The position numbers and the translations under genes were made by a program. A DNA stretch of 64,000 nucleotides from Phoronis australis (taxonomy: Eukaryota > Animalia > Phoronida): positions 1,131,974-1,195,973 of the forward strand of contig NMRA01000008.1 of the NCBI GenBank assembly GCA_002633005.1, in the 5' to 3' direction. The notes beneath the pieces were generated by a model, which ran no database searches, was not told where the DNA came from, and saw only the letters and a program-made list of their open reading frames with translations. Within the stretch, counting starts at the first letter, position 1; each line of letters begins with the position of its first letter. Shown here piece after piece: positions 13,837-46,500 of the stretch.

Positions 13837-13980
13837 TTCAGTAACGCTAGGACCTCGTTAAAAAGCAAGACTTCGCGATATTACGCGAGATATTTCCGTG
13901 TATTTTAAGTGAGAGCACGTGACTAAAACTAGATTTTAGCTAGGTCCTAGCGTAGGTCCTAGCGTTACTGAACGCACGCC
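13837..13980. mobile_element. MITE family B, copy 1
   Basis: Inverted repeats TTCAGTAACGCTAGGACCT (13837-13855) / AGGTCCTAGCGTTACTGAA (13954-13972); second copy at ~34958-35081. Confidence 0.8.
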
Positions 13981-15861: not shown

Positions 15862-16592
15862 CTATAGCCACCAGCAACCAAATATGCTGGGTTCACCTTT
15901 AATGTCCAGAAGAACTTCCTTGGGCAACATCTGCATGAAGGCTTTGGCTAGCTCGTCTGTTTTCATCCGCGTATAAACAATGGTCAAAATAAACTTGGGT
16001 GCGATGTGTTTCTCGCGACACATTTCAAGCATATTTGGCAGATGAGTTCTTATGACGGGAAATTGACGGAATTTTTCAATGAATTCAGGAAGGTTTGTCT
16101 TCCTCATGGCCGAGTAGCTGGCGTTGTCATCTTGTATACTAGAAAATCTGTAGTAGTGAGTGTGACTGCAGTAAAAATGTAACGGATTGTTCGACACATC
16201 ACTGTCGGCAGAACTCAGGCCCATCGGTGTAGACAGACGGTCGCTCGTCACATAAGAGGTGGCGCTTTTGTAGCCCGATGTTTCTGGCGTCTGAGACACA
16301 GATCGGTGAAAAAACTGTGGAGTCGACTTTCTGGAACCAGCAGCAGGCTCTGCATTTAGGACACCTTCCAAGCCAATTGGAACAGACGTACACCTGCGAC
16401 AGACCTCAGGCTCTGATTTATGACGCACCTTCAGCAGCTGACCTGTGTTCAACTCTGTCTGGTGGAAACTTGTGGCTGCACGAGGTCGTGACCTTACACT
16501 GCACGCCTGACAGGACTGTGGATTGTGATGCAACGCTTCTGCGTGTGCAATCAACGCTTGTTGATCACAGGAAGTGTGAGGCTCAGTTGGAG
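15862..16592 (-). CDS. MUN-protein gene terminal exon
   Basis: Acceptor ttgcAG, phase 1; ...HFYCSHTHYYRF...TRMKTDELAKAF...GCWWL-stop; AT-rich 3' UTR with a minus-strand AATAAA at 13745-13750. Confidence 0.85.
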
Positions 16593-19500: not shown

Positions 19501-22500
19501 AGGCCAATGGGAACAAACTAGATAGTAGGGGAGATAATAATAAATACCTTTGTCTAGAAGAAAGTTGGACTAATTTCTTCATTTCATACATGACTCCCTC
19601 TGCCTGGGAATGAGTCACAACTCAGAAAACTAGCTTAAGGTTTACGTAGGACCTAAATGACTACTTAAACAACTATCTACAAGGAGGCTGCCCACACCAG
19701 ATGGTCCAATTTGAACAGGGACCGGGGGTTACAGCTCCCAGTAGTGTACGATCTGATTCTAGAACTAGGTCAACCAGACGCGGGAAATCCCGTCAGTGAA
19801 CAAGGCACTTAGAGAGATTGCAGAAACGTCCGACTCACCAGACTCTCATGATTTAGCCATTAAACAACTGTCTACAAATTCATAGATTTTAACTCAAAAA
19901 AGCAAATTTTCTAAAGCAGAAAGCCTCAAGAATTTGGTTTCTGGTTTTTTTATCAATAGAGAATTAATTTGAAAACGTGACCATGTATTATAGTAAATTT
20001 TGAAAAACAAATTCTTAGCAAAACAACGGTATCTATAACATGACCAAATTTTATTTGATATCAATGTTTAAGATAAAATCTCCAAAATGCTGTTATCATT
20101 TCCTTTCCTGTTATAGAACTTTTGATTTTTTCACGAAAATTATAAAACCCCCNGTTACCTAAGTAAAATTTCTGTTATTCGACTAAAATTTCTGTTACCT
20201 AAGTAAAATTTCTGTTATTCGACTAAAATTTCTGTTACCTAAGTAAAATTTCTGTTATTCGACTAAAATTTCTGTTACCTAAGTAAAATTTCTGTTATTC
20301 GACTAAAATTTCTGTTACCTAAGTAAAATTTCTGTTATTCGACTAAAATTTCTGTTACCTAAGTAAAATTTCTGTTATTCGACTAAAATTTCTGTTACCT
20401 AAGTAAAATTTCTGTTATTCGACTAAAATTTCTGTTACCTAAGTAAAATTTCTGTTATTCGACTAAAATTTCTGTTACCTAAGTAAAATTTCTGTTATTC
20501 GACTAAAATTTCTGTTACCTAAGTAAAATTTCTGTTATTCGACTAAAATTTCTGTTACCTAAGTAAAATTTCTGTTATTCGACTAAAATTTCTGTTACCT
20601 AAGTAAAATTTCTGTTATTCGACTAAAATTTCTGTTACCTAAGTAAAATTTCTGTTATTCGACTAAAATTTCTGTTACCTAAGTAAAATTTCTGTTATTC
20701 GACTAAAATTTCTGTTACCTAAGTAAAATTTCTGTTATTCGACTAAAATTTCTGTTACCTAAGTAAAATTTCTGTTATTCGACTAAAATTTCTGTTACCT
20801 AAGTAAAATTTCTGTTATTCGACTAAAATTTCTGTTACCTAAGTAAAATTTCTGTTATTCGACTAAAATTTCTGTTACCTAAGTAAAATTTCTGTTATTC
20901 GACTAAAATTTCTGTTACCTAAGTAAAATTTCTGTTATTCGACTAAAATTTCTGTTACCTAAGTAAAATTTCTGTTATTCGACTAAAATTTCTGTTACCT
21001 AAGTAAAATTTCTGTTATTCGACTAAAATTTCTGTTACCTAAGTAAAATTTCTGTTATTCGACTAAAATTTCTGTTACCTAAGTAAAATTTCTGTTATTC
21101 GACTAAAATTTCTGTTACCTAAGTAAAATTTCTGTTATTCGACTAAAATTTCTGTTACCTAAGTAAAATTTCTGTTATTCGACTAAAATTTCTGTTACCT
21201 AAGTAAAATTTCTGTTATTCGACTAAAATTTCTGTTACCTAAGTAAAATTTCTGTTATTCGACTAAAATTTCTGTTACCTAAGTAAAATTTCTGTTATTC
21301 GACTAAAATTTCTGTTACCTAAGTAAAATTTCTGTTATTCGACTAAAATTTCTGTTACCTAAGTAAAATTTCTGTTATTCGACTAAAATTTCTGTTACCT
21401 AAGTAAAATTTCTGTTATTCGACTAAAATTTCTGTTACCTAAGTAAAATTTCTGTTATTCGACTAAAATTTCTGTTACCTAAGTAAAATTTCTGTTATTC
21501 GACTAAAATTTCTGTTACCTAAGTAAAATTTCTGTTATTCGACTAAAATTTCTGTTACCTAAGTAAAATTTCTGTTATTCGACTAAAATTTCTGTTACCT
21601 AAGTAAAATTTCTGTTATTCGACTAAAATTTCTGTTACCTAAGTAAAATTTCTGTTATTCGACTAAAATTTCTGTTACCTAAGTAAAATTTCTGTTATTC
21701 GACTAAAATTTCTGTTACCTAAGTAAAATTTCTGTTATTCGACTAAAATTTCTGTTACCTAAGTAAAATTTCTGTTATTCGACTAAAATTTCTGTTACCT
21801 AAGTAAAATTTCTGTTATTCGACTAAAATTTCTGTTACCTAAGTAAAATTTCTGTTATTCGACTAAAATTTCTGTTACCTAAGTAAAATTTCTGTTATTC
21901 GACTAAAATTTCTGTTACCTAAGTAAAATTTCTGTTATTCGACTAAAATTTCTGTTACCTAAGTAAAATTTCTGTTATTCGACTAAAATTTCTGTTACCT
22001 AAGTAAAATTTCTGTTATTCGACTAAAATTTCTGTTACCTAAGTAAAATTTCTGTTATTCGACTAAAATTTCTGTTACCTAAGTAAAATTTCTGTTATTC
22101 GACTAAAATTTCTGTTACCTAAGTAAAATTTCTGTTATTCGACTAAAATTTCTGTTACCTAAGTAAAATTTCTGTTATTCGACTAAAATTTCTGTTACCT
22201 AAGTAAAATTTCTGTTATTCGACTAAAATTTCTGTTACCTAAGTAAAATTTCTGTTATTCGACTAAAATTTCTGTTACCTAAGTAAAATTTCTGTTATTC
22301 GACTAAAATTTCTGTTACCTAAGTAAAATTTCTGTTATTCGACTAAAATTTCTGTTACCTAAGTAAAATTTCTGTTGTTCGACTAAAATTTCTGTTACCT
22401 AAGTAAAATTTCTGTTGTTCGACTAAAATTTCTGTTACCTAAGTAAAATTTCTGTTGTTCGACTAAAATTTCTGTTACCTAAGTAAAATTTCTGTTATTC

Positions 22501-25500
22501 GACTAAAATTTCTGTAACCTTAGTAAAATTTCTGTTATTCGACTAAAATTTCTGTTACCTAAGTAAAATTTCTGTTGTTTGACTAAAATGAGTGTGGAAA
22601 GCTGTTCTCCAGCAAAATACTAAACAATTTACCGCAATGCAGTTGAGCATAATTTCAGCCTGAATTTCTGTATCTTTGCCACTTCTCTTGAGAAGGTCAA
22701 CTTCTTGCTCAAAGTTCTGTAACATAAGGCAATAAGACAATTTCAGCAAAATGTAACAGATATAATTTTGAAAGCAACTGATGCTTAACAGGACACAAAA
22801 GGATTATGTGACATTTCATTCAATGAAAAGAATCAAAGTTATAAAATCTAAAATAAGAAAGTTGGACATATTCAAAACATATACCCAGTAAACAGAAAAT
22901 TTTAAGTTTTCATTCGTAAGAAAACCACAAAGTCCAGTACAGTGACATCCAGGACTTTCTCGTGCAGGAAACGCTATCAAATTACACTCTCGTTGCCTGC
23001 TAGTAAACGGTAAACCAAGTAAATCATGCAGGTGATAAAATGGATTTAACTTATTGTAAATCTAAAGGATCAACGATCGTCAAAAGGACTAAAATTGACA
23101 GGCAAGTCTAATTCTATTTGACATTGTGGTTTTCAGGATATTTCCATTGACAAGCTTTCTCGGGCAACCAAAGATAATTTTTCAGTAAGCAAGTTACTGG
23201 GAAGGATTGCCAACCTATCGTTTGCGGCGTAAGTCAGTAGTGTCGATTGGTGGACCAACTAATGCAAATTAGAATTTCAAATTTATGCACTTCAGAAATG
23301 GAACAAATGTTAACTGTGAATGATTAGCAAAATAAAAGTAATTTGTTAAATTTTGTGCGAACAATCCCAGGAACCATATAGGAAATTACCCTTCAGTGGT
23401 CACCACTGTGCTATTCTGGTCCACTAGCATAGACTGCTCTTTTTGTGTGATGTTGAGTTACAGAACTTACTGGAAATCACACGCCCCAGATCAATTGCTA
23501 CATAAAAGTCAAACATAAAATTTACAAGATGTAACACCAGGCAATGGTTACCTCTATCATCAGGACCCAAAACTGTTCAAGGAAACATCTGAAGCTAGCT
23601 TGCGTCAGCCATTGTGAGGTGGCCCTCAAATGGCTGTTTAGGAAGTCAGTCAGTGGCTGAAGGCGCACTTCGATAGGAGTATTCCAGGGGATCTCCAAGT
23701 ACAACAACAAATTAAGGGCCTCACGTGCAAAGAGGTTCACCTGGGAAACAAAACATGCAAAAATTAAAGGTTACTTGAGACCCTAGAAAAAACATCCAAA
23801 TTTGGTTTACAATTTTCAACTGCATATTAACGAGAATTAAAATCAAAGACAAGTGGGTTTCACAGTTTTCCAAGGACACTTTCTGTCCGAATTTCTTCAC
23901 ATAATCAAACCAATTGCTTTCAACAAGAGAGAAAGACCATGTGACATGCATGAAGAAATAGGAATCTGAGATATTTGGGAGATTCTACATTGAAATTTCC
24001 AACAAAAGTCACCATCCACCCAGATACCAGTTTAACCTTAACATTATTGTAACCATAAATGATTCAACATGAAAGCTAAAAAATAAACCTCACTCAACAT
24101 TAAAAAGTTCATTCAAAACTTCTGTTACCTGGAATAATGATAGCTCACAAATAGTTCAAAAATAGTAATATGACAAATTTCCAATTCCTCATCATGACGT
24201 CTAATACTGTTAACAGCAAAAAATACTGGTAATAACTATTAGGGAGGCAAAGACTACACTGACGATGAATTCGGCTTCCGCTCAGCCATCATGACAGGGC
24301 ATTCTGGGTCATTTTGCAGGAATGCTTTTGTCTTTTACTGTAGGTGCAAATGTTTCACTCATGCCAGAACTCATTTTAGGCTTTGTCATCTCATGAAATG
24401 TTGCCCTTATGGTCATGATTCCCGTGGTAAATATCCGTCTCTCTGTTCTCACTTTGTCCTTGTTTGTGTTCACGCATCATAATTTTATGGCAGTGCTTCA
24501 CTTACTTAGCATACAATATGGCTAACAAGCTAAATTCCACTTTATCAATATTTCTCCCCAAAAATAAAGATGAAGAAATTTTTAGTCTATTACTATCATG
24601 GTTAACACTGCGCAGAAGTCATCAAACGTTTGGCAAATTTTCCATTATCTGTAGTAATGTAATCAGTTTTAATTTCAGAAATAAATCTGGTGGAAAATAA
24701 GTGGAAAATTACTCTAAGTGAAAAATACTTCATTCTGAGTACTAAGTAAATCAAATGAATGAATTCAGCTCTGGAGTCTTATACATAGCAGACGTCTTAC
24801 TTTGTACGCCAGTACTTTGAGTAATGACGTGACAGCCTGCCGTAGATGCTTCACACACCCTGCCAAGCCACCCAGTGCTTGTTGACCTACAGACATCTGG
24901 TGACCCTCAGACACAGGTGTGTTAATCCCTGCAAGATATGACCATAGAACCAAATGACACAGCATTGCAACCTGTCAAAGAATATGCCAATCCTTCAAGG
25001 TACCATTAAAAACCAAAACCAAAAGCAAATATTACTAACATCTAATCATGAACAGTATGGACTCATTTCACCTAAGAGGAAATAACTTATCATGACGAAA
25101 TGTAAACATCCTCAATATTTCTATACTTAAAACAAATAAAACAACCAAGTCAAACTCACAAAAGAGATTGTAAATCATACAGTAAAAATTCTCCATTTTC
25201 GACAGTAAAAATTCTCCAGTTTCGAACAGTGAAAAATCAATTGGTATTTAGTTCAAGATTAGAGCTTGTACCAAATTTTGAAAATAGGCTATATTAACCA
25301 TCCCCGAATTCAAGAATTACGATAAACATAAACGATCTTTCAATTCAATGTTACCCACTATGAGAACGCAGCATGAAAACGGGTCACCGAAAAGCATTAT
25401 TTGATGACTTTATGAAGTGCCAAAAGACTACTTTCAGACTCTGTTTATACAAAATAATAATATTCAACATTCGAGACATAAGGAATGTCAAAACTGCTGT

Positions 25501-28500
25501 CTCAACATTCAGAATAAAAAAGTTCAATACTCTCCTCTGAATAAAATAAAGTTGGACTTTGGCTTGAAGTTCGGTGTCCCAATTTCAGAAAGTGTCCCGA
25601 ACTGGAAGATTTTTACCGCAGTACATGTGCTGCTGAGGAAACCTCTTTTCAAAAGAGGTCAGGACTTTTTGATTTAGTATTCTACGGTCATTAAATATAG
25701 TTCTAAACAAATCCAAAAATTGATTCTCATCCATAGTGCTATTGCTTGGCTGCTTTTCCGTCACTCAGACAACTGATACGTGAGTGCACAATACACACAG
25801 CAAGACATGACGCAGAGGCAAATACATGCCCACAGGTACATCAATAACTGAGTCTTGCTGAAAACAGGGCGCTCCTTCACGGGATGGAAATGATGCCTGT
25901 GCCTAACTGAGAGGTTTTTTCAGGTGCGGGAAAACATTCTCCACCTCAACCCATCCCTCATTGATTCTGCCTCAACCACCTGTGTGAGTTACAAGTGATT
26001 CTAGCCTGGAGTGGAATTTTCTAATCACTTGAGGGGAATTTCAGGGTCTGATGGGTGATTTTTAAACATTTTTAAGAAGGGATTGGAGTTGATATTTGGC
26101 CACAAAATTGAGGCATTGAGGCCTCTGCAAACATGATTGTCTCAGACAAATAACAAATCTGTAATAGAAAATGCGATTTGGTCGTCATAAACATTTTTAG
26201 CATACGTTTTTGGGTTTGTAGTTAGAATTTTTTTCATTCGTCAATATGACACATACTCGACTGGTCTTATATGACGGAATCACAGAATCAGCCTATGGTG
26301 CCTTTGTAGCACATGACATCTGTTACAGATAGCTTTAGCTGGGCTCCTTTTCACACAAGCATTGTTCAACCACAATTTTTTCCAAAAAGTTACTATGGAA
26401 AATATAACAAAACTTGAAGCTCAGATAGTGCGAAGGAGCACTGTGCCATTCCGCAATCAATGGATATCTACGTAACTAAATAAATTGCAAACTTATGTTC
26501 TGTGACCAAATAAACACACACCAGACACATAGTGCACGATACGAGATTTTGGGTACAAGTTACCAATGGACTACCAAAACTAACCAACAGCTAGTTAGCT
26601 CAGATTACCTGGGGCAGGGGTAGTCTCTCTTGAACTTAAAGCATCCTCAATGATCTTGTTGACGTAATTAAGACAAACAACATCAGCCAGTTTCTGTTGC
26701 AATTGTGGAAGAATGTCAAGGAGACACGTAAGATTGTTTATCCTAGTGCACATCTGAAACAAAACAAAGTGACAGTTAATTGTCTTTTGTTCTTCTTCAA
26801 ATCGGATGCAAATTCATTGAATTTCAGAATATACTGAATCATTCACAAAGCTGAAAAATGAAGGTAAAATCTGACCAACTTACGACATCATACAGCGAAC
26901 AAAAACATATTTCATTTCACCATTCTTCCCTAAATGACAAATGGCACCGGAGTAATGAGGCTTTGATATTTTCGACTTCTCTGACAGAGTGACCATCAGT
27001 CAATGCTCTTAAAAATTGCGAGCATTCAAAACAAAGTTGAAACCCTTTGAAAAATGACAAAAACAATTATGGTAATAATTTTAGTCTGAAATTAGTGAGA
27101 TTTTACTTTAACTGTAAGTAAATATATGATAACGTACAGACCCACACCACTAAGATGCAAAATTTGTCAGACACATTCAACTTGTTTTTTCTTGTAATTT
27201 GGCCAACATACGCTAACTTGACTTGTGTCTAAGAACCAACATGAGACTCGTTCCTAACATGAGCTAAAAGGTTTGTACGAGCCCAAAGGCAAAAAATATA
27301 TTATAGATACAGTCAAATTCAAAAATATGTACAGTGGAGCCCACATCATACCGGATGTTAGAAAATCCTCGTTATTGTCATGGAATGTCAAAATATGAAA
27401 CATTTCCCATTAAACTAATGTCCTGACTTACAATCATATTCCCAGATATTGTCAATAAAAATCAGCAAAATTGATTCTCACCTGCTTAATAGCATGTGCT
27501 CCTTCGCGTTTCTGTCATGGACTAAAAATTAACCCAACTCATCCTTAATTCATTTGCCTTATCAATCTCGGCAATAGGGATAAAAATCACTTGTTTCCTT
27601 TTTACTCTGAGACTCTCCACTTAGCATGACTACAAATAACTACCCAGTTAAAATTCACCTAATGGAAGATCCCACTCATTATCATAATTTACGTCAAAAC
27701 TGCCGGTATGTCATTAAGTGGTCTCCATCATACCAATACGCCACCAATATGCACTAACGTAGCAAACTCAACTTTGGGTGCTTTAATTGATGAGATTTTC
27801 AATAATCTGCATATGTTATTATGTCAGGATATTTCATGTATGCCTTCAATTACCCGACCAGCACTCAATTACTCCTTCCCAAAAAGAAATTACTGTATTC
27901 ACTACTTCTGGATATCACCAGCTTCTATTCATCAGTTTTAAAACTTGATTGACATAAAGTCAATTAAGAGTTCTGAATTTCTCCTTATCCATTCACACTT
28001 GCCAAGCCTCCCAGTTTAGGCAGGAGTAGAGGGTATCATCTTATTATCACTTCATACCAACTCGCAGACAAATATTAATACATCACACAACGGTCCTGCA
28101 CATGCACTTGCTGAGTGAAGTCAACACACGGCGCTGTAGTGGAAGTTAAAGGGCTCCCTAATAAGGGTGTTTGAGGTATGCACTACCAACATGGGGGAAA
28201 TTTTGGTCTTGTAGTATCATTGGTCAGGATTTTGTATGTCTGATGCATTTCTCTACCCACTTTAAAGACAGCCATTGACTGTATAATGCAAAAGCTCTCA
28301 ATAATACCGTAATCTCATTCAGTAACCGTTTTTCATTTACTTCAGCCTGACAAAATATTTAAATTTCATAAACTTATTACTCATGCTAGGAAAATTCAGA
28401 AATCAAAATGATTCAGTTAGCTTAACAGCTAGTTTGATTCAAAATGTTACTTTGTTGAGAATGTGTTGTAGTTTCATATTCTCAAGCTGTAACAGCAATT

Positions 28501-31500
28501 ATGCCATCACGTCACCAATATAAACAAATAAATTACAGGGTTCTGACAAGAAGGTCCAAGCAAATAGTACCTATGTACATTTCATACTTACCCTCCAACT
28601 AAGGGGTGATTTCCTTCCAACTTAAAAAGGAATTAAGGGGCTACCCGTTGTAAAATGAAGCCACAAAATTTAGGAATGGTTATACGACCATATCAAAACT
28701 GATATTTAAACACTTTTTGACTAGCCAATGTAATGTTATGTACTTGGGGATGATAATTTTTTGTACCAGCATACAGAAAGGATTGAGACATATTTTGTGT
28801 ACCTGAGTAAAGCTTTGTTTTCATTTTTTATGGCAAAAAGATGCATGTGTCATAACTGTGATATTAAAGGTGATTTTAAATGAAAACACTACGAAACAAA
28901 TGCTAATATAGGCCATAATCCAATAACCCGATCACTGGTTCTCCCACTTGAATTATGAAATCAATCCTGTGAAGTGTATTTTGTACGATTAATTGAAATG
29001 AAATTGATGTACTAATGGAATGTGAATTTCTAAATTTGTATAACCCTCTTACAGCACAATTCAAGATGATCGGTTTCAAACCGCCAGTTACACAACACAA
29101 TTCAGAAATGGTAAAAAGGCAGAAGTTGTAAATAGCAAGGTGAGGTGCCCATGCTAAGGGTTGCAAATAGCAGGAGAAGCACCTGATGTTGAAAAAGAGA
29201 AAATGGTGCAAGTTTTTGCATATTTAGAGGCAGCTGTCGCTCCTCATGGCACTTGATGTTGCTGCAGAAATGGCAGCACCGTTATAACATAGAACTAAAT
29301 GGTAAAGAAAGTCTCTTGGCAATTCGTAGACATGAGAGAAAACGATCACCTGTACGTACGCTATTACATGAGCGCAAGTAACAGAATCACTTCTGCGTTG
29401 CCACAGCTATGTGTTTAGCCATATAATTGATACAAAATGAGATTGGGCACAAGTTGCACCACCTGGTAACAAAATTGACACCAGAGTGACATCTTGTTAC
29501 ATGTCAACTTCTGTTCACGCACATTTATGTAGTTACCATTTCCTTTTCAAATTGTGTTGTTCGAATGTAACTTTGTCATTCTTATTACTACTACTAATAC
29601 ATTCAGTGTCCCCACTGGTCACAAACTCTCAGTTCCAGTCAACAAACAAAAGACAAAAAGAACTTCTAAATGTTTATTGGCAAAGAGCATACTACAAGCA
29701 ACATCAATACAACACAAAAATCTTATAGAAAAATTTCAACTACGAAGACTTAACTACCAAATTATAAGATACTCAAAGCCATATAATGCACAACTGAAGC
29801 AAAACAACACAAGTATTTTGATCAACTTCCTAGGGAGGTGGTATTAAATAAATTAGTAGACAATTTTATTGACTACAAGTTTTTAATTAGTCTTAAACAA
29901 AACATTTCAATGTCTACATACATTACAATGCATTTTGTCTTAATTTATAGAAATTCATGCAGATATTAATGAATTACATAATTTTATACACTTCTAATAA
30001 ACCAGTATTTAGTTTTCATATAAGCAGGTATGAAGTGAAACAAAGGTCCACTTGTTCTTCCATCAACTAAATCAATCACATAACTGATGTTCTATTAACC
30101 CTATACTGATCATTCTATGATTACAAAACTATCAATTTCTTGCTAACCAGTATGTAAAATAAATGACTGATAAACAAATAAATACTTGAATGAAAAAAAA
30201 ACTTAATTGTTATATAAATTGAAACAAATAACAGAAGTACTAAATGCAACTAAAACGTTGCTACTTCACCAACCATGACTGATTAGAAGTAAAACAACCA
30301 GTAAATCAGCTCTGCAGCAAAAATGCATGCCAAAGACAATAAACCAGTGCTTCAATTCAACAGACATGATTTTACATTAGGACAAATAACTTTTGTCGGT
30401 TCTGGGGAATAAATGACATGCTAATCTATAATACGACGAGCAGGTAAAATTTTCTTACTGCGAACTATTTTGTTATGGACGATTCGAGCGTTTCCACGCT
30501 CACCTAAGGGTCTTCTACAACGAATGGATTACCAAAAATGTTTGTAGTAAGTGAATTTTACCACCTCAACATCATCACAAATTATCAAGAACCTACTTCA
30601 TTGAATCTATACAATGTCAGGTACATTTGCATTGCGTACAAGTCGCTTGACATTACACAACAGCACGTAAAAGCGTCTGATGTCACTTCCCCTTATGGCG
30701 TTGAGAGGGGTTATATATACATTTTCGTTGATCCAATGTCCTGAAAAATTGAAATATGATGTCAGATGCATCTGAAAACATATTCCTGTAAATCAATTTA
30801 ATATGTGATGCTTCAGTTCTCTGAGAAGACAATCTAAGCAGACTCTTGTTTGAAAATAATAATTTTAAACATCATTTTCTTGTTTTTTGGGCAGAAATCA
30901 ACCATAGTCATATTAATGACACAGCATGAAGCATGACAAACACTTACAGAAAAAAAATGGTTAACTTAGGACAAAGCATGACGGAAAATTTGAATTTCAG
31001 TCAGTTCAAATTTAAACAAATATTAACACAAAAGAATATTTTGCGTTGGAGTAATTTATGGGCTTGAAGAGAGCTGACACTTTGCTTGTGCTTTACTTGA
31101 GGATAAATAACTTGGTTATGGCCCAGCTGTTCATTTAGCCAAGAATGGCACCAATAAACTAATTACTGGTGGGCAGCTTCAAAAACCATGCGAGCACAAA
31201 CCAGAACCAAATAAGTTACATTATGTCCTTATCAAAGACGGTTGGTTATGTTGATTATTGAAAGAGATTACTTACTACTTGAAGACTTCAAGTCACACAA
31301 AACTGAGTAAATTTCAGCCAACAGTTCATCCATCTTTTGCGTCTGCTCTTCTGATACACAGACTGATGACAGCCTGTTAGTCTCAACTAAATGGGTGAAC
31401 GTGGCCAGGCAGTTGTAAAGGCGAACAACCTGAAATGGTCAGGACCATTAAGATTATTAAGTAGAGTACAGTACAAGTTTCAATCTCTCAGTAAACTCTG

Positions 31501-34500
31501 AAACCAGTTTTAAATTACATTGATAAAACAAGCACACTTTTAGTTATTACATATTTCATTCGTACCAAGACAACAACAGCATATAATTTACCATTCTTTC
31601 AAAAAATGTGTTCTTACCATTATTGCTGCAAGTTAATATATTCAGTGTTTTCTTTGTGATGTTAACGGTGAAATTTCAGTTGTGTTGAATGTCGCCACAA
31701 TTTAACAGCTAAACAAGCGTATGCATGTACCAACTAACCGTTGTTTTTCCAAGTCAAGCTAGGTTGGTCCCAAAAGGATTGGAAAATGTATGGAAAATGT
31801 GGAGACACAGGCATCTGTTTCAGGAAAAGTGACTTAAGACTCAAGTCAGAAATTTGGTCTTGCGCTCTATCTACATAAGTAATTCTAGCAATCGATTTGG
31901 CAACCTCAGACTGTTTGGCTGCCTAGGAAAATCTCAACTCGCCACGTATCAAAGTCAGACAATAATTCCCCCTATAGTCAATTCAAAGTTTGTGTTGACT
32001 TCCAAACAGTAAAATATTAAGAGTTTTCCTAGATTTATTACCTTTGGTTCACAATCATTCCGATTATTTTGTGAAATCAGTGCATTTTCCACCACGAACA
32101 CGTACTTAAATTACAACAGGAAGTAAACAAGACAGAGGTCGGAAATGTTTGGAGTGTGAGCGTAAGACTTGATTTCTGTCTGAAGTCTTAAGACAGTTTC
32201 ATGAAACTCCAGCATAAGCAGAAAATGTACGAATGCACAATTTAAACACACCCCCACGAGGATTTTTGAAAGAGCCCTCACCAGGACCTCTGGATCATTT
32301 TGCATATCTGATGGAAATGGTCAATAATTCCTCAATTTTCTATCCTTTAAAAGGAATGTAAAATATAATACAAGTTGATCAGTTGTCAACATAACCCTTT
32401 GTCAGACTTCTCTTATAGAAGACAAGCTGCTGATAAAACTAAAACCTTCGTTTTTAAACAAACTTTAAAAGCACATTGCTGAATAAGGGCACTGAGGGTG
32501 GCAATGTAAGTTTCAAAGAGAGCCCAACCAGTTTTTGGACATGGTAACTTTAGTAACTAGAGTGTATCGGCAAAAGCTTCAACAATTTAGTTTCCAACAT
32601 ATACCTTGTTATTGTTCAATTTGTATCATCAAAGTAAAACTGCACTATTGTAACAAATCTGAAATCTTGAAGGAACACAGAAATTTGTACCCAAAAACCT
32701 CAAACAGTGGTTATGCATGTTGTGGTATTCACCACAAATACTCAGTAAAACACTGGGTTCTCAACACTGTGTGAATGTGTCAGGAATAATTCACTTGAGG
32801 GCACATAATTCTTAAGCAAATAATACATTGGTTTGAGTTCCTAGACATGTTATTAATTTGAATTCTGCACATTACATTAACATTATTTAGAACTATCAAT
32901 AAGCAGTGACCATGACCAAGATCCACCCTGAAGCTAACTAAGCCTTAGCTTCAGGTCCTCAGTTCCAGAGGGACAACTTGTGCTGGATTTTGAGAGCGTT
33001 TGCTGCTTCGAAACAAGGCATTGGAATTGGCTATAAGTGGTATTAAGCAACTAGAGTGGCAACCACAAGGGGCGTGTGGATTGGGTGAAAACTGGGGGTG
33101 GGAGTGGTCAGATGACAAGTTCAGAGCCTACTTTAGGTAGGGCCTTCAATGTCTCATTTTTTTTGCTAAATATTGGCCCCATTACCCCCTAGAAATATTT
33201 CAAAATCGTGTAATTCCATGAATCAGGTGCCTTAAATAAAATTTTTCGGAAGTTAACTTAAAGAATGATTTAAATCACAGACTCGGGTTTTATCAACTGC
33301 AAAAAGCCTTACTTCACAGTCATGCCTTTCCAGTGTTTAAAACCTCGCCATGGAGAACAGAAGCAGAATTAGTTGATCACAACTGCAGGGTGATCATATA
33401 GTATTGAGGAAAGAGAGTCATTCATGAGATTCCTGGTACCATAACCTGACATTCTAACTACTGAGGGTAGTACACTTAATTCTAAGAAAAATCATATGGC
33501 CAGATTGGCTGTCTGCTCTGAGCACTGTGTAAGGGGACACTACCGTAACAAATGGAATGAAAAGACTTTCCCTTATCCTGAAGAAATTCTCCTCAGTGAG
33601 GATGTGCCCTGTTAGGCTACTGTTCCAGATACTGCTGACAAAAATGTGTTTATATATGAAACCTTAAATATGAAAAATTCAGTAGAGTCCTTTGGTTATA
33701 GCCTAATATCACATTTAGTGTCTGGTGTCAAAATGTGCTTGTGTTCATTTGTGTGTGCGGGTGTGTCAAATTGTCATACTCTCCTTCATTTGTATATGAT
33801 ATTAATATCAATAAACAATTGAAAAGGTAAGGCACATTCCAAATACAATGATACAAATTGACCATGTATTCCCCATCGTGGTGACTAAGTATAAACAACA
33901 GTTACCATCAAAATAGCTAGAATGACGCATGATTTATGGGGAAACTGTGTTTTGTGTGCTTATTATTGGCGTTTACTGAAGTTAGGGGCTGTCATGGCTG
34001 ATGAAGTTTCTGGTCCCAAAAATATAGACAGATATGGCAGCAGTGAAAACAAATATACTACACAAACCTTCTGCTCAGATGTGGCATTGCCATTTATAGT
34101 TTGAAGACATCTGCCAATAAAGCTGTGGATGTCATAGCCATGTCCGTCAGCAAATCGGCAGCTTAAGTCTGGAACCCCATAGCAGTCAGCCTGAAAACAT
34201 ATAAAGCATGCGTGAGTGCGAAGCTCTTTCACCAGTACGGACCATTAATTGTGTTTACCCAAGCACTTCTCAAGTTTTGCTCAAGGTTTTAACATGTGGA
34301 CTGTTAAAAGCACATGAAAAAAATCAGTTGCAATGAAATTAGTTACGGTTTAATTATTATTGTATTATGATTATTACTATTTCATTCATTTATTAAGTTT
34401 CAATATTGCAATACAAATACAGTTATTCAAAAGGCGAATCAATTTATTATGAGTGCGTATGAATATGCAGTTATAATTCAGTGTCTTAATGTAGCGACAC

Positions 34501-37500
34501 TAACACTTCGGTTGCACCATCTGTCGGTAACATCATATGACCTGTAACAATTTCAAATCCGCAGATTTCTGTCGCGGCTGGACTTGAAGCGGGGACTTCC
34601 TGCAATCTTTGAAAACGATCTGATCCACCGAGTAATCGGGACCACAGAGATTCTGCGCCAGACTTTCACTCAATGCAGACACAGATCTAAGAGCTAAGCC
34701 CATTACCATGAGCGAAAGTTACGTTACTGGCAATAACAACTAACTGTTCATGCCTTGACGGGAGCTATATGCTCAGTTAACGTTCATTCAAGGCACCCAG
34801 CTGAGCTAGTAACTTAATGGAGAGTAATTTGCAAATGCTTGAAAATAAGCTCTTATAATTTAGGGTTATGCACTGGTGCTGTGGAATGACTATCCCCACT
34901 GACTGATGGGCCAGTTGGGATACAGCCATGTGGTTATCAGTTTGAAGGGGGGCAAACCTAGGACCTCGCTAAAAAGCAAGACTTCGCGAGATTACATGAG
35001 ATATTGCCGTGTATTTTAAATAAGAACACGTGACTTTGACAAGTCCTAGCGTAGGTCCTAGTGTCTACTGAACGCACGCCCGCTCTCTTATTGTCTGCTT
35101 TCATCTGACAAGCTCATGTAATTCAGCAATTATGTTGTAAACAGTGCTGCTGACCCTAACTAATACTTAAAAATACTATTTGCAAACGACTTTAAACAAA
35201 TGTCATGAAGCAGATGTGTTATGTATGAAATACTTTCATCAAAAAAGTTCGAATGGAGAAAAATGGTTGACTTTCAGAGCAATTAGACTTAACTTTCACC
35301 TGTTGATTCCTTTAGGTGACTGTACCAACACAAAAGGCTTGCTTGACAAGTTTAATGGAGCGTGATTCTAGATTAGATTGTAATAGTAGGAATTTCTTCA
35401 CTTTTACACTCCAGGAGAATGGTATGTAATGGCATAGCAATGCAGAAAGAATAAAGTTATTGAGTCTTCCTTCAGGCCATTTGTTGGTTTTGAACTAATT
35501 TGAGAAATTTCACCAACATCACAAGTGTTCTATTCAGATGCCTACACAGTACAGCAACTTTTGGCCTTCTGTTCTTTGCTGTGTTTTCAAGGTAACGCAA
35601 TATGGCGCAAAAATACCACTGATGAGCGTACCATTTGACAAGGTTATGTTTAAGCGATTACGGTAAATTCTGTTTTCTTATGTGAAAAGTTGCAAGAGTA
35701 TTGCAGGAACTATATAGGCAGTTCAATACACTCAAAACAACAAAAGGTCATTCATGGAAGGATTTAAACACAACTTGTGTTACAAATCGCTACTATGTAA
35801 GATATAGCTAACAAATCTATACAGAAAATTGAAATAAGTTAACACTAAAATTTGTGTTCAACTTTCAGAGAACACAGGAGACAGTTGTAGTGAATGAAAA
35901 TAGGTTAGACACACTATACAATAAATACAGAGCTCAGTAGCGAGACATTCACTAATTTCCGCTTATCTGTTATTAACAAGCCAAAGTGTAAAAACACACG
36001 AAACAGGTAATCAAAGTGCACACAATAAAACGCTTTCTACTTACACTCCTGCGCTATAAAACGAGAAATAACACATTAATGAAAAAAGAATGCGATACGA
36101 TTGCCATTTCAAGTCTGCTTCTAGAATTTGGACAAGCTCTGACCTTGAGCAAAATAATTAATTTTCACTGTCCCAATTTGGAGAAGTTTTTCCATACTTA
36201 ATTGTGTAACCGGTAATTACTAGATTTGTGTCTAGATCATATTTTAGTATATTTTTCTTATATGGACAGCTGCATTTTTATATGGCATCCTGCAACAAAA
36301 CATATTCATTCATTCATACTTTTTAAGGTTAAACCTTTTGTCTTCGAATAGTAGCAAGATACTGGTGGAAACTGAAAAGCCGTTTTTCCCCATGAAAGCA
36401 CTTCATGATTTCAGACAGCATTAAAAGCGAATATATCCTAAAAAGAATTCCTTAATAAAATACTTACACAAGTTTAAGACAAAACAGTAATCCTGATTAT
36501 CTTATTGACGAAATAGAACTGGAAAACTAATTCTTAAATGTCAAAATTCATGATTTTGGATGGATCAGTGGCTTGTTTTCTACAATCCATAAATTTTCAC
36601 AAACAATTAACAATTTTTTTCTCTACGGAAGCTTGACAAAACTTTCAAACAAAAAGCACCCAACAATACTATATTTAGAAATAATTTTCTTGCTTGCCAT
36701 TTCACTAAGAGTCCCTCCCACAGGGTTATGCCCACCTGGCTAGGCCTGTCTGACCACAGATTTATTGGTCTTGACACATCAGCTTTGAACTGTGGTAAGC
36801 TTGCCCTAACATTGGTGGATGTGGGTTGATTACAACAATAAAAAACACCATTGTTTTGATTTATCTCCCTTACTCTTTCTGTTGTTAAAATATGAGTAAA
36901 AACAATCACAATAAAATTTTTTCTGCAGGTACAAATCACAGAGTGTTTATCAGTGCTTATGCGCACAGTTCTGAGCGTTCAGTACTGGGTATTCTCCACT
37001 TACTTAGCACAAAAATAATTGCCAAAATGGTCTTTTCCATTTTTTAAAGGCCCATTACTTTTTTGCAAATAATGGGAGATTTAGACTACAATCCATGCTT
37101 TTAATAGACTTGAACATTCTTCGTCTTTACTTTTGTGAAGAAATTCAATAAAACAGAATTTTACTAGTCGGTATGGTAAACAGTGAAGAACAACTGCAGC
37201 CTCCCAACCAAAGATACCCTTACTTGAAGAGGGATGAATTCAGAGCCTCGAAGAAATACAAATTCCTTCACGTTGTTCCGCAACAGCTCAGGATATAATC
37301 AAATGATTGTTAATAAAACCAAAGGTGAACTTTACTTACAACATCCTGTTTTAGTTGATTTACGTGGTGCTTAATTTCTGCTAACTTATTAGCTACTTTC
37401 TCGGACACATCTTCACTAGCGTCTCCAAACAGTCCTTCTGGGACCTGCCAACCGCGGCCGCATGGGTTGTGAAAAATGTCGTTAGAACGACGTGCTATAG

Positions 37501-40500
37501 GACTAGCCGAGACCAGTGTCAGCCACATGACGACCACGGCAACCACTGCAAATATTCAGTAAACAAGACTGTTTGACTTGTTGGACAGAATAATTTCAAT
37601 ATTCATACAATGGATTTGAAATGCAATGATGGTAGAAAAGTTAGGTGTCTGTTCAATTTTTCGTCTTCAATATTTTCATCTTTCACGTTGACATTTTGAA
37701 AATTTTATTGAAATTAAGTACTCAACATTTTCAAATTTATCATGTTAAAAGTCTTTGCCTACCATATTGTGGACAAGTAAAATTTAGCAAGTTTGTCAAA
37801 TTTCTGAACAAAAATAACGTTTGAGTCTCCTGCTAGTGCAGTTTTGTAGGCCATATTATTTGTAGCTACCGTAATAAACCTTTTTCACCAAATGCAGAAT
37901 TTTCAGCATATACATGAGGCCTTGAAAGTTCAACAACAGGATATTAACCAAAATTATAGATGAAGGTAATGTGCTGGCTTAAAATAAAACATATCGAAAG
38001 TTGCTTACTGCAAAATTAAGTGAGGAAACAGTAAAATGCTGGGCGTAACAATCATGAATTACTGATAGAGCAATCTTAGAGCATCTAACTTTGTAAGCAA
38101 GTATTAAATGAACAAAACACTGCACGTACCTCTCATCTTCATGTTGATAACCATTTCTATGATCAAGGTAATCTTCAAATCTTCCAAGGTTCAATTCGTT
38201 ATGAGAAATCATGATAGTTCGCGCCATTTTTATTCACTCGCAACAGAAATAGTGGGAAATCGGACCAACGCACACTGAGAGTGCCAGTCAGACTGAAATT
38301 CCCTCAGCTATTATGCAAGCACTCCCACTCACAAAGGTACACAATAGTCAGTGCTTATTTCATATTTTTAGCACTAATAATTTAATATTTCATCAAAAAC
38401 ATTACAGGACCATAGCTTAACTGTTAACGAGATAAAGAATGAGTTCTCATAACAAAATACAATAAAAGCAAAAATTAAAAAATGGTAGTTTAATCTGGAT
38501 TGAAAAGTATGTCTCATCATTTCTAAAATTAAGTTTCCCATATCAAGTAATATACATGAACATTTGGGGGGGCCTACACTGAACATGTATTTCCTGTAGG
38601 CGCGTTTTTCATTCATGAACTGCAACCCTTGGAATCCTTCAGATGACAGTGTTTCGAAGAAAAGCAAAATCCACTACATTACTAGTACTTTCATAGACAG
38701 CAGAGATTTTGGAGAAATTAAACCACAGCTTGGACAATAGGCACTACAAAGCAATTCTACACTATGGCATACAACTGATTGTTTACAACAGAGGCCACTA
38801 TTTACTCAGGATACAAAGAAGTTGACATAAATAGCTCCCATAACATTAACACAGTACTATGTGCATGTAATGACTGGGAGGTGAGTGAGGTTAGGACACA
38901 GGCAACACCTGAATGAGAACAAAGGAAGGAGTGTATAAACTGATTACAGTCTCAATAAACAAACACCTGAGGCATAGGTCCTGAAGCATGGGGATGAAAG
39001 TAATTCCCCAGCTTTGATTTCGGTAAAGTGCAAAGGCAAAGGGGTGACTTAATATAAATTTAAGTGATAAAGTTTATCTGAAACCTTTGGAATGGTTAAA
39101 GCTTCAGAAATCTTTTTAAATGCTTAAGAAATCTTTTTTGCAATGGTGTAAGTCACTGAAAGTTAATTTCTCAATGATAACTTTTAACTTTACCCATACT
39201 ATCAATGCCATTAATCGTAATTACGGTACATGTTCTTAACTTCATCTAAACATGTACAGAAATTTTTAAAATTTTAAAGTTTAGTCTTGTTATGTGCGAC
39301 TAAACGTCACCTTTCTTAAGTTAAACTCCTTGAATGTACAACTGAACAAACATGTTATTTGTGTTGTCACTAACTCAACGACAGTACTAATACAATCACT
39401 AGTTTGATAGTTCTCATAATTAGTATCGGTACTAATCTTAATATTGTTTACATTGACACACAGGTCTAATTTTAAGAGCTTCCCAATATTGAACTGTTAA
39501 AACAAAAATGCAAATCAAAAAACGATGGATTTGCGATAACAAATATTCAGACATGAATGTCAAGCAACTTAATTTGGATTATACCTGTTAACTCATATCC
39601 TCTAACTGTGCTGCATTAAAACTACACATAATATCTTTGGAAGAACAGCACAATTACTAATACATTAATCTTAACAACAAATTTACTGTGCATTCTGACT
39701 GCACCTTGCCTGACCATGCCAGCTTCTTTTTATTTCTGGATAACACGTTACCTTCAGAAGCTCAAAACAATTAAGTGATTTAACCAATTAACAGGCTTCG
39801 TTAAGATTTGCTAGACAAATTTCAGGGAATTTTTTGGCAAATCAGTTTTCATAAATTTTGGTTTAAAACATTCCAGCATGTTGGTAATTTAACAGGACTA
39901 ATGTGCTCAGTAAATTTATTTTTACACCAATTAGTTCATTATGAGAAGACTCAAATAAACCAACAAAAAATGGATATTAACTTTTGAAAATTGCTTTAAG
40001 TTTCACAGACTACCATCAGCTTTCCAAAAGTTTCCACAGGCGTCACACCCCTTCCTGCGAGTGACTTACCTGCACCTTCCCAGCATGTGACAAACGCTAC
40101 CTGCCCAGATTTTTCTAAGAAAAAAGCGACATGCAGCCACATGTAATATATTGGTGATGCACTGAATGTCGGTCACAGTATATTCATGTCACAGTATATT
40201 CATGCGTAAAACCTCATTCATACAATCTCCTTTGCAGGAAAATGGGGAATCCAAATATTGCTTTCAGCAAAGAAGACTTTTAGCAAAAGTGAATTGTTTC
40301 ACTTAAGCTAAGTCACAGCGATTCCTTAAGTTTCTGAAGCCATACGGTATGACAATTTACATTTCAAATGTAAATGTTAGTTATATCCATCAGTTGTTTG
40401 TGTCAGTGCTGAGATAAACATGGCAGGAATTAATTACAAAACTAACAAATTTCAGATAGCTAGCGAGGTATGAATTATAAGCAATGAGACCGGTAGAGGC

Positions 40501-43500
40501 ACAACAACATTGCGTAATGTCGCTTTCCAAACACCAACACTGCAACTCCTCTGTTTTGCAGAGTTTTAGTGAGTGGGAAAGCGACTCCAAGAATCAAACA
40601 GCCACAATATTAACTCCTTTCAAAATTAGTTGATTACTGAGAAGTTGCGCAACTCCTTAGAATGGGAAAGGTTGAATAAATTCACTTCCCATCAGACAAA
40701 TCGCTAGAGGCCGCCACATGCAACACACACACATTCAATCTTTCATGCAAATAAACTATGCCATCTGGTGGTCAATCTAAAAAAAACAAGTGGTAATTCT
40801 GATGTTGCTACCAGAGGGTAAATGGCAAGGAAAGTTACCCTGGAGTTTGAAGATGTCAAATTTTCAATAATGGGAAAGTAGCATAAACGAACATTTCAAA
40901 ATAACAAGAGCTGAACCAACAAATAACGTCCTGTACAAGAAGAACATTTTTAGTTGATTTGTAATATCAAAAAGATACAAAATTGTTCAGTTAAAAGCAC
41001 CTTGCTGCGAAAAATGGAATTTTACACCATAAAATTTCTCTTCAAATATGAATAATAAGAAAGTTTAACTATATTTTTGCCATGTATGAATTTTCCTGCA
41101 TAGCTGTCATCAAACAAGATATCAGATGGCAACTTTTGGGCAATAGCAGCAGCATACTATTAGTAGTATACAGAAAACAGAAAAACAGCAAGTTGAATTA
41201 TTGAGTTTATCCCAAATTGAAGAAATTTAACTGGATGATTTTAGAGCGCCTATTAAAGCAACATTTAACAGGCATGAACTAAATCTTTGTTACTGTAACC
41301 ATGGTAGCACATTGTAAAATGTTTTGCTGCCTAGCAATGCCAACTCTTGTTTATAGAACATGTTAGCCTCTTTCACACTTAAATGCAAATTGAAGTAGTC
41401 ACACAAATGGAAGTAATACTCTAAAGAGGCAATGTAATATTCACAATTCAGCTTTTGTTTTCTGTCAGTTTTTGCACCAATTGTTAGGGGCTCATAAAAC
41501 AACTCGAAAAGCAACGGGCAACGATTTGATTTTGACACTTTCCCGAACGAATATGTTGATCAAAATGATATTTCTAACACTGATAACAATATAGCAAAAA
41601 TACAGCAACAATGATAATAAATTAATGACATCATCAATAATAGTAATGGTAATAATAATAATGAGAATGATAATAGCAATAACAATAATGTCAGTTTTTA
41701 TGAAACTAAGTGATTGACAGTTTGTATTAAAAACTGTTGGCTTGCAAAAGCCAAAAATAGAAAACATGATAAACGGGAAAGGCGAAAGGAAAGTGGCCTA
41801 CACAATACAATACCCTCATTCAATACCTTTACTAACTGACATTCAACATTCTGTGTTTACTCACAGGCCACTGCACTGGACAATTCACTAACTCAGTATT
41901 GTCAGGAGAAACCTAACAGGTCATTGCACATTCATTAAAGGTATCAACAATAGGTAACATTAAAAGTAAGTTCATTTTCACAAGTGAGAGAAACTTGTTT
42001 AAAGGATTCCTGTGTATAGTATTAACTTGCTCTAGAACTTTTCAAAAATGCTAACCCAGGAATAATAACCATAATGGCCATTTTCACAAGAATATATTAA
42101 AGCCCTTTCCCAAACTGTTAATCACTCCAACTATCTAAGCTTCGATGCTAAGTGTGGTTAACCCTGAAGTTAAGTGTTAGTATTCCCATAAGCTCTGGAT
42201 TTAGTCAGAAAAGTAGCTCGGCGAAGTTATTGCGAGGTGACACTGATATAACCTTTTTTTTAAATGTTTAATTACGAAATCTTCAAAATACAATGAACAT
42301 ACATAACCCAGAAAGCGCCAAGAGGCATTAGATCTGGGTATAACCTTTGGTCGCATGCCTTGATGTTTTTCGTCCTTGTCATTAAAAATGGCAAGGACCT
42401 ATCCGTCTCCCCAAATGGAAACTAGAACATCAAATTCACATGGCAGCTCACAGTTGCCACGTGTGGATGATGACGATGCAGTAGATGACATACTAAAAAA
42501 ATAACTCTTGAGTAGGTGAACAGCAGATCTGAACAAGGACAGTATGACAGGAGCTTGTTTTCATACACCATATGTTCAGAGATTTTTTTTAATGTAAAGA
42601 ACCCAACAAATACATGGATAACTTGAAACAGAATGCTTCTACTGCCAAAATAAAACAAAATATTAACAAGTATTAACCAGTCACTGCCTACTGTTGGCAA
42701 ACGCAGGCAGTGACTCCTGTTGATAAATCCGATGGCATCGAAGTTAAGTGTTCCCATAGCACTGTTCCCTTCCGATTCCAGACTGACTAATCCCATAATT
42801 CAAACATGAGACTCCTTCCACATGGAATTTCTCATCAAGGTCAAATTCAAAGAGAAAGTATACAAATATGGCCCAATCCCGTGGGTTATATCAGGTCATA
42901 TGGACAGAGGAAGAGTAGCAATGTTCAAGGCCAAGGGGAGAGCAATATTGCTCTCCCGAGGTCCATATGACCTGATATGCCTGAGAAAATTCTCACTATA
43001 TATTTGTTTCATTACACGACCACTGATGCTTCTTTCCTTAGACTTTTGTCTTTTACCTTTTTCTTTTCTGCTTTGATATACTGACATCGTCTGCTTACTT
43101 TGTGGTCAGGGCTTATGATTTCTACAGCGTGTAATTGGTCAATGCACAAATAGCAACATCTGACCACTTAGCAGTATGAATGAAAAGTGATATTCGATGG
43201 ATACATTGGTCAATATTACGCAATACAGAATGCAATTGAGCCAATTAGAGAACAGAAGTACCAGTGGTTGGATAAGAAAAACAAAATGTCTTTCTTACCT
43301 GTTGATTGATAGGTTCAAAGCGGTCAGCCAGTAGTTCTGCACCGTTGTCATTGTACTGGAAGCAGTTTCTGTGCGGGACGCTCATGTGACGGCAACCCCA
43401 AATATTACCTTGTTGTTTTTGACGAGTTAAGTGCAATATTGCCTGCAAATACACAATGAAGAGTTATACCAGTGCACTCTGTCAAAGTTTTTAAGGTACC

Positions 43501-46500
43501 TTGACAATTTTGTTAGGAGACTGACTCCGTGACTTGCTCACAATTTACAGCATAGCACGTGGATTAGAATAGTTTTCCGTGATCAGGTGACACCAAAAGA
43601 GCCATATTCAGAGTACGCAAAATGCATATCTCATGAGATGTAAGCAAACCAACGCACACCCTGTGCACATGGTATGACTTTAGCCATGCCTGGCAGAAAC
43701 CATCAAACACTGTGGAAAGCGGTCACAGCAGGATTTCAATGGGTAGTGTGGCCAATGCATTATGAACTCAGGACGTGCACAAAATGGAACAACTGTTGAG
43801 AGCCAATTACATGTAGCCAATGCTGCATCGTTTGTGGACAACTTTAAGATACCATGACCCTGCAACACAGCTGAATTATACAGCTTCCTTAACATGAGAG
43901 CTTAAATAACTTGAAGAAAGAGAAAACAGTCACTGTGGCTGTTGATTTCAACATCTCCTTGTGATGAGTAAAATGAAATAGTGCATTTTATGAATATGTC
44001 AATCTCAATACGGCATGAAAATATGTTGCAAACATTTTAAGTCTGGTCAGCATGCCATCTCTTGGCCAACAGATGGCGTGCTGAACTTAAAATGCTTGCA
44101 ACAATATTGCATGCATGCAAATACAGAAGGTTGACTCACCACAAAGTTTTTCAGTAAAACACAGTAGTCGTAACTAATATGCTACCCACCGTCTGTGGAA
44201 CACAACTTGATTTACCTCACTTACCATATGACAATATAGATCTCAGCTGATAATTTCTGGGCTTAGGAATAAATGGAAGGTTTGCTGTTTTTATGTGCAA
44301 GCATCAACATGGCTGAAAACAAACTGGTTCCGTGACCGAATACTAGAAGAAGTAACCAGTCGGCACACAGGCACATCAGAAAGTGACTCTCTTCTATGCC
44401 ACGCTTTTGCGCACCAAGCAAAGGCAATACTGACTGAAAATACTAAATCTGAATACTGAGAGGTTACACTAAACTTACCTCCTCTCCCAGAAGCCTCAGT
44501 GCGTCTTCCTTCAACATGGCACAGATATCCATACACAACATGTTGTCGGCGTAGATACATAGCACCGAGTCCATAGTCTGCAGAAGGGGTAGAACGTTAA
44601 ATGAATTAAAAGCTTCAACCACATCACTCCTATAGCAGCACAATCTATACACCTCATATCAATCAGTTAGTGCACACCAGCTGATGTGTTGATATTCCCA
44701 ACTACACTTTGAGACAGCGCAATCAGGCAAACTGTAGAAACATTTGGTACAAGAAAGGAAGAATGATTTGACTTAATTTTATTTAGCACACAAAAGAGAA
44801 CAAACTAAAGCAGTTGACGCCTGTGGTAAACCTGGATACTAATTGTCTTTTCATACGTTTGTATGAGCAAGTGGACAGTACAACTTCAAAAGTTTAAAGA
44901 CCCTATGACAAAGCAAACTTCACTTTCTGTGTTCTCTATATCGCGAATTACAAAGAAAACTATATAAAGAGGACAGCAACTTGGATTCCACTTTTCTGAA
45001 ATTTTCTGATGTAGATAAACTTGTTTTTTAATCATTAATTTGTCGACGAAGCTTTCTGTTTTTGTTCAAGAAGCATTAACGTAAACTACTATGTAAACAG
45101 TGACTTGTAAATGAATGGTTTGTTTAAATTCAAGCACGTCACATTAATAAACAAAATTAATATACTGTTGCTACTACTTCCAGAGCTGCAAAATAACATT
45201 CATTCACGGGATGAAGCTACAAAGGAAACATCTGGCTATGCCTCAACACTGCATCGCTGAGCTTTGCTACCCTTACAATAACATTTTGAGGGCTACATCG
45301 ACAGGTCAAAAATACCGTAAGACAAGACTGAATTGGTTTCTTAAGTCGAAAATAACACTCATTAGTTAAATTACAACCGCAGCTTAACCACTGAAAACAA
45401 GAAGTGAAAACTTGGAAAATTAAATAGAAAACAATCCATACTCGTCAGTGCGCAAAGCGAGATGTCCCAAGGTAATAGTTATATTACCAAAACAGCATGC
45501 ACTAGTAATATACAAGGATGAGTTCCGCATGAGTTTCTTGCGAGTTTGGCAAGATCACATAAAACTTGACACACAAGTGATAAGTTAGTAGTGGTGAGTG
45601 AATGTGAACTAGCAAAATGGCCGCCAATAAACTGAATGGTTGGGAGACCGTAACGTTGAATTATGGGAGAAAAGTAACGATTTCCATCTCAAAACCCAAG
45701 ATTTTTCGCCACAAGTTTCTCATCAGTGCAACAATAAGTAGATATCAATAATACAATACCTGAATAACTTTAGAGTAAATGTCCCTTCTAGCCACAGCCA
45801 TATCATGAACGTCCCACTGCAGCAACACTGGTTGAGCAGCAGTACGAGTTGACCACTGACCACTTCTGTTCCCTGCGTGAGGGGAGGGGGTCTTAGGGGA
45901 CAACGTGCGACTCGACTGGGAACTTGGGCTTACAGATGCTTGTAACTGACCTTCAATACGGAGGTGATGAATACATTAAACATCAGTGACGGATTTAGGT
46001 GGGGGGGGGGGGCAAGGGGGCCATGGCACCCCTAAAATTCTCCCAGATACCATTTGGCAGTTCGGGGTGTGAATTGCTGAATAGCATATGTGCGTATCCA
46101 GGGGGGCTCGGGAGGCGAATGCACAATGCATAGGCCTTGAAACCTTGAACAAACCCCGCTTGGATTTTTTTTAGTAATAAGATCCGCAAACCCAAAAACT
46201 GGAGACCTCTGCATCCCTACATTTTAGGTTGGGTGTGCGCATGTGCCGAAATTCTAGTTATTCCTGTGCCATAGCCCACCTAACTCAAAATCCTGGATCC
46301 ATCCCTGAATATATCACACAAATTGGCTGTAGCTCCTTATTCCTAAACACTGTCACTATTTGGAATACAGTCCAGAGAAAGAACAATCAAGTCAAGGTCA
46401 AAGAAAGGTCAGATAAGTAAGTTTATATGACCGCACGCACTGTCATAAAACCTAACTTCCATAACACTTGATCCAACCCAATGCAGTTAATTTGTTACAA

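Follow-up and report, generated by a model that had tools for sequence, protein, structure and literature searches.

A hidden five-exon gene nested in an intron of Phoronis australis, with a probable but unproven identity as a helical cytokine

Across 18 animal groups surveyed in 2026, IL-6 was found in vertebrates only and most invertebrates were reported to be without an IL-6-like ligand, although the occurrence of the receptor, JAK and STAT starts with molluscs (PMC13203501). As of 2025, leptin and IL-6-family cytokines were described as unidentified outside jawed vertebrates (PMC12284397), and a preprint of 2026 reports IL-6 from lamprey and hagfish as well (10.64898/2026.04.02.716188). 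IL-12-type receptors are placed before molluscs, with helical subunits reported in vertebrates (PMC12162339). Here we describe a gene model carried by a 64-kb stretch of the phoronid Phoronis australis (contig NMRA01000008.1, positions 1,131,974 to 1,195,973; hereafter the window, in whose numbering all positions are given). It lies wholly within an intron of a host gene and appears to encode a small secreted helical protein. The hidden gene model is well supported; its identity as a cytokine is probable but unproven.

A five-exon gene within a host intron

Joined on the minus strand, five exons give 630 nucleotides (nt) that encode 209 amino acids and a single terminal stop. The exons and their surroundings in the host gene are as follows.

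38142-38130, minus strand: coding part of exon 1, 13 nt, with the ATG at 38142 and a phase-1 donor
37545-37340, minus strand: exon 2, 206 nt; predicted helix A (48-72), preceded by the remainder of the likely signal peptide and by an N-terminal arm containing Cys33
34190-34068, minus strand: exon 3, 123 nt, phase 0/0; putative AB loop, Cys76, Cys84 and Cys101, amphipathic mini-segment 93-106, Asn108 sequon
31429-31276, minus strand: exon 4, 154 nt, phase-1 donor; predicted helix B (116-134), 6-residue loop and helix C (141-164), with Cys121, Cys138 and Cys159
30740-30607, minus strand: coding part of exon 5, 134 nt; ends in the stop TAG and covers a putative CD loop and, with Cys194, a putative helix D (184-203)
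26754-43298, minus strand: host intron, 16,545 nt, phase 0, ends CT..AC, enclosing all of the nested gene, which shares its strand
43299-43442, minus strand: host exon upstream of this intron, 144 nt
26609-26753, minus strand: host exon downstream of this intron, 145 nt

A first-pass annotation of the window had proposed five small exons with canonical splice sites and a 209-residue product, and this model stands: all exons are AG/GT bounded, and the only stop falls at the end. The four introns (584, 3149, 2638 and 535 nt) are all GT-AG, with phases 1, 0, 0 and 1 at positions after codons 4.3, 73, 114 and 165.3. The same annotation had counted two exons in frame in its track of open reading frames (ORFs); the stop-to-stop list of ORFs of at least 60 amino acids holds three. 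Translation from another in-frame ATG, at 38154, would make the product four residues longer (213 amino acids); further upstream, the open frame is bounded by an in-frame stop at 38193.

RNA evidence was drawn from three raw-read runs labeled with the same species (18-19% of each) and one contig set, over positions 26000-45500, with at least three reads needed for a joint to be listed. The proposed nesting was borne out, as all five exons lie within an intron whose splicing is documented by 18 reads (11, 2 and 5 in the three runs) spanning the joint 26753-43299 on the minus strand; the adjacent host intron joint is covered by 13 reads (6, 5 and 2). These reads also bear on the explanation that the exons belong to the host. 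Exon 3 would then be a cassette inserted in frame, or exons 3-5 would supply an alternative 3' end and cut the host protein short. The shared strand suits this explanation, as does the fit of a phase-0 host intron to an exon 3 of 123 nt with phase 0/0, but exon 2, the strongest candidate, begins with a signal-like stretch and cannot follow a phase-0 host exon in frame because it requires a phase-1 donor. Moreover, the sole joint listed across the host intron is the one that skips all five exons, and we regard a host origin of the exons as highly improbable.

The statistical support for the exons was assessed within the host intron, where every open frame of 60-300 nt bounded by AG..GT, 2,727 in all, was scored and non-overlapping picks were ranked. 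The splice matrices were derived from 17 short host exons, and the codon-position model was trained on these and on two long host exons (AG/GT ends were examined for 18 host exons). Exons 2, 3 and 4 are picks 1, 2 and 3, with boundaries identical to those annotated earlier, at 36.2, 26.1 and 22.9 bits (35.2, 25.5 and 22.1 when the nested exons stay in the background). The runner-up sense pick reaches 18.7 bits and the top antisense pick 19.9. In a control on eight other host introns the top picks scored 27.4 and 18.4 bits and the rest at most 16.1; these two, at 51494-51653 and 45760-45915, are probably further host exons missing from the exon list. Exon 2 is far clear of the other candidates and exons 3 and 4 modestly so, the latter two gaining weight because their phases are compatible. 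The acceptor of exon 3 ranks first among the 904 AG sites of the intron.

Exons 1 and 5 are the weaker parts of the model. The exon 1 donor ranks fifth of 1,097 GT sites, and just one of 141 phase-1 first-exon candidates has a stronger donor, a competitor at 40142-40070 (73 nt, phase 1; 11.7 against 9.2). The acceptor of exon 5 ranks 20th of 904 and its coding score is -6.2 bits, the best of its frames (the others score -18.4 and -25.0). Of 242 acceptors downstream, the 12 strongest include just two that open more than 18 codons: the one of exon 5 and, 45 nt upstream of it, a weaker one in frame.

Within the gene, a 32-nt imperfect palindrome occupies 30753-30784, just upstream of the exon 5 acceptor. 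A repeat resembling a short interspersed element lies at 34958-35080 in the second nested intron, with a second copy at 13847-13980 (81% identity); it attracts most of the RNA reads aligned to the region, which are loose-ended.

The encoded protein and its probable identity

The signal peptide claimed in the first-pass annotation is also predicted here from the pattern of charge and hydrophobicity, judged by script and inspection. Two basic residues occur within positions 1-6, a hydrophobic stretch covers 5-16 (mean 0.89), and Val/Ala occupy -3/-1 for a cut after residue 18. A second hydrophobic stretch is absent (best 19-mer 0.2), which argues against a membrane anchor. The eight cysteines (33, 76, 84, 101, 121, 138, 159 and 194) and the single N-glycosylation sequon, at Asn108, are present as claimed.

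Structure models were built from single sequences of the single-exon peptides of exons 2 and 4. The exon-2 model contains a leader helix (2-13) and helix A at a mean predicted local distance difference test (pLDDT) score of 67, with 69-88 in the blocks of helix A, and the exon-4 model is a hairpin of helices B and C joined by six residues (mean pLDDT 91). Residues 184-203 are strongly amphipathic (moment 0.57) and, from this moment, are taken as a putative helix D. The predicted helices A, B and C measure 25, 19 and 24 residues, preceded by an N-terminal arm of ~29 residues, and the spacing is ~40 residues for AB, 6 for BC and ~19 for CD. A long AB, a short BC and a long CD linker form the pattern of long-chain class I cytokines. 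None of the 16 Pro/Gly falls within the four helices, an arrangement that is descriptive only because helix ends depend on these residues. Three thresholds were applied in counting amphipathic helix-prone 18-mers, and two of them gave a count above that of shuffled sequences (67 and 57 of 2,000 shuffles). Structure searches with the exon-4 hairpin alone were uninformative, since it cannot discriminate folds.

Sequence comparison returned no relatives. The exon peptides, of 41-68 amino acids, found no homologue in Pfam, PDB or sequence libraries, in searches of low power in which even a host exon peptide found none. Neither the Unpaired Pfam profile, at E up to 10, nor Upd-like sequences matched these peptides, and single exons gave no Pfam, PDB or sequence-library match that would link them to IL-6. 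The absence of sequence matches is usual for the family: even lamprey IL-6 escaped BLAST (10.64898/2026.04.02.716188), and so did Unpaired outside Drosophila (PMC5385356). No paralogue of the gene occurs within the window. The WxNPCG motif of Unpaired-type ligands invoked in the first-pass annotation is found in its last four residues, with Phe29 in place of the Trp; nothing relevant to this motif appeared among the literature matches listed.

Several observations weigh against a long-chain cytokine, and the lack of homologues is one of them. Four amphipathic segments had been claimed with long, short and long linkers; the predicted spacing fits and the count does not, as there is a fifth segment at 93-106 (moment 0.59), read here as a putative mini-helix of the AB loop. 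The moment of helix B is low (0.15 over 110-134), the amphipathic scan at a threshold of 0.40 selects the AB mini-segment instead of helix B, and at 0.45 the count of 18-mers is not above chance (503 of 2,000). Genes of the IL-6, GH, G-CSF and EPO type have phases 1,0,0,0, with a last intron of phase 0. The nested gene, with 1,0,0,1, departs from this pattern, and the earlier claim of a tiny phase-1 first exon followed by phase-0 introns fails at intron 4; the phase-1 last intron makes the gene-layout argument weaker than originally stated and IL-6 orthology less likely. The protein also has eight cysteines against the four conserved ones, in two disulfides, given for IL-6 (10.64898/2026.04.02.716188). 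Finally, no nested-gene junction was listed in the three RNA runs, against 18 reads at the host junction, and RNA depth over bins with nested exons ranges from zero to one or two fragments, as in intron-only bins. This RNA result is compatible with a transcript that is inducible or limited to certain tissues, without being evidence for one.

The RNA depth, which is no greater in exon-bearing than in intron-only bins, would also suit a silent relic or a chance chain, that is, a young pseudogene or open frames selected from a long intron, as would the missing homologues and the negative coding score of exon 5. Such an origin is nevertheless hard to reconcile with 630 nt free of stops and frameshifts, with three phase-compatible exons that outrank all other candidates, with a guanine-cytosine content of 0.42-0.49 in exons 2-5 against ~0.35-0.38 around them, and with the confident helical model of exon 4. 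We consider it very unlikely, and it is very probable that the five exons form a real nested gene.

A real nested gene could still encode some other secreted helical protein rich in disulfides, such as a five-helix interferon or class II-like cytokine, a pheromone or a lineage-specific hormone. For type I interferon, the stretch 165-183 between helices C and D is low in moment and contains a Pro, which argues against a crossover helix like the one in that class. Interferons as a group are further disfavored by their phases, 0-0-0-0 against 1,0,0,1 here, and by a range reported as restricted to chordates (10.64898/2026.05.30.728932; 10.64898/2026.08.17.745176). A protein of another kind is an unlikely alternative.

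We favor, as the probable reading, an IL-6/Unpaired-type JAK/STAT ligand, which would be a secreted four-helix cytokine of the long-chain class, akin to IL-6, LIF and Unpaired. In the earlier proposal of a probably unannotated invertebrate JAK/STAT ligand, the size, leader, five exons, predicted helix lengths and spacing fit, and the layout argument is weakened by the phase of the last intron.

Putative regulation, proposed action and the host locus

Two flanking elements of the nested gene hint at its inducibility.

38295-38318, minus strand: putative inducible promoter with a C/EBP-like site next to an NF-kB-like one, ~150-175 nt before the ATG
29865-30606, minus strand: putative 3' untranslated region (UTR) in which ATTTA occurs seven times; its poly(A) signals lie near 29887 and 29870

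The C/EBP-like site at 38318 and the NF-kB-like site at 38303, 15 nt apart, form the sole such pair in the 64 kb, and a pair occurred in 1 of 2,000 shuffles, a figure for a pattern picked after it was sighted. Taken singly, kB-like sites occurred in 64 and C/EBP-like sites in 708 of the 2,000 shuffles. Seven ATTTA pentamers were reached in 48 of 1,000 shuffles and in 1 of 86 window tiles, and longer AU-rich motifs showed no enrichment in the putative 3' UTR (465 and 278 of 1,000 shuffles). The competitor first exon at 40142-40070 lies near a STAT-like palindrome (40113-40121), a kB-like site (40244) and C/EBP-like palindromes (40510-40517 and 40645-40652), and the region 40049-40652 is a possible distal promoter or enhancer.

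In the mechanism that we propose, the gene's own promoter, with its C/EBP-like and NF-kB-like sites, would switch it on upon infection or injury, and the AU-rich 3' UTR would make the message short-lived and therefore near silent at rest. Cleavage of the leader after residue 18 would release a secreted chain of 191 residues (~21.5 kDa), which may be glycosylated at Asn108, carry up to four disulfides and adopt an up-up-down-down fold with a mini-helix in the AB loop. This ligand would dimerize a class I receptor of the Domeless/gp130-like type and activate STAT through JAK/STAT, as reported for Aedes Upd-like (10.1101/2025.09.21.677592).

More tentatively, the gene may represent an ancient, undescribed invertebrate branch of IL-6/Unpaired-type ligands and the missing partner of orphan Domeless/gp130-like receptors in non-arthropod invertebrates, hidden by intron nesting and near-zero resting expression, with a C/EBP and NF-kB promoter and an AU-rich 3' UTR like those of vertebrate inflammatory cytokines. 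If this holds, cytokine-driven JAK/STAT immune signaling would date to early animals. The concrete gene model offers a candidate ligand for cloning and testing, and the nesting illustrates how such genes evade annotation.

The host had been labeled a Munc13-family gene, which we take to be plausible from putative MUN-like motifs. No MUN/MHD or C2 match was found for it among 20 window ORFs and 14 host exon peptides searched with profiles, in three PDB searches or in one homologue search, and the label was confirmed by none of these. Its presumed MUN region includes a single Ser/Asp/Glu-rich exon of ~2.3 kb (47359-49648), and the final ~90 residues of its probable last exon (15862-16626) look helical; neither has a family match. 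A satellite of ~2.4 kb with a 20/40-nt period occupies 20154-22560 within a host intron. Plus-strand ORFs at 9340-9903 (187 amino acids, no Pfam match) and 11198-11710 (170 amino acids) likely belong to a neighboring gene converging on the host.

Comparison with known helical cytokines

Among the genes of the IL-6/gp130 family, LIF and CNTF have other layouts than IL-6, as does leptin. In the jawless-fish study, IL-6 genes are described as five-exon genes in which one intron interrupts the leader and three interrupt the domain, and candidates are screened for a length of 150-280 amino acids, a leader, a whole-chain four-helix bundle and structural similarity to IL-6 (10.64898/2026.04.02.716188). 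We regard the last two of these four features as decisive. The first two, length and a predicted leader, are found in the nested gene, together with the exon count and the leader intron. With the IL-6/gp130 family (IL-6, IL-11, LIF, CNTF, CLCF1) and G-CSF it thus shares size, leader, five exons and the 1+3 intron placement, and its predicted helix lengths and loop pattern resemble those of the family. It differs in its phase-1 last intron, eight cysteines, ~29-residue N-terminal arm and nesting within an intron.

Unpaired (Drosophila Upd1-3) and Aedes Upd-like are likewise secreted, glycosylated and weakly conserved in sequence, the first being predicted and the second putative for the nested protein. 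The nested protein differs from Unpaired in that its exon peptides gave no profile match and in having Phe at the Trp of the motif. Aedes Upd-like, which is induced by infection, is reported to contain disordered regions (10.1101/2025.09.21.677592), whereas the nested protein is compact. The nested protein is assigned neither as an IL-6 orthologue nor as a member of Unpaired.

Like the nested gene, erythropoietin and thrombopoietin genes comprise five exons, of which the first has a coding part of 13 nt that ends in phase 1; they differ from it in the phase of the last intron, and no sequence link to them was found. A short phase-1 first exon is also reported for IFNL2/3 (PMC2654155). The class II interferons of lancelet and lamprey differ in phases (0-0-0-0, against 1,0,0,1 here) and have five helices, and they resemble the nested gene in a product of ~200 amino acids with a leader, in five exons and in having been found only through gene structure and fold (10.64898/2026.05.30.728932).

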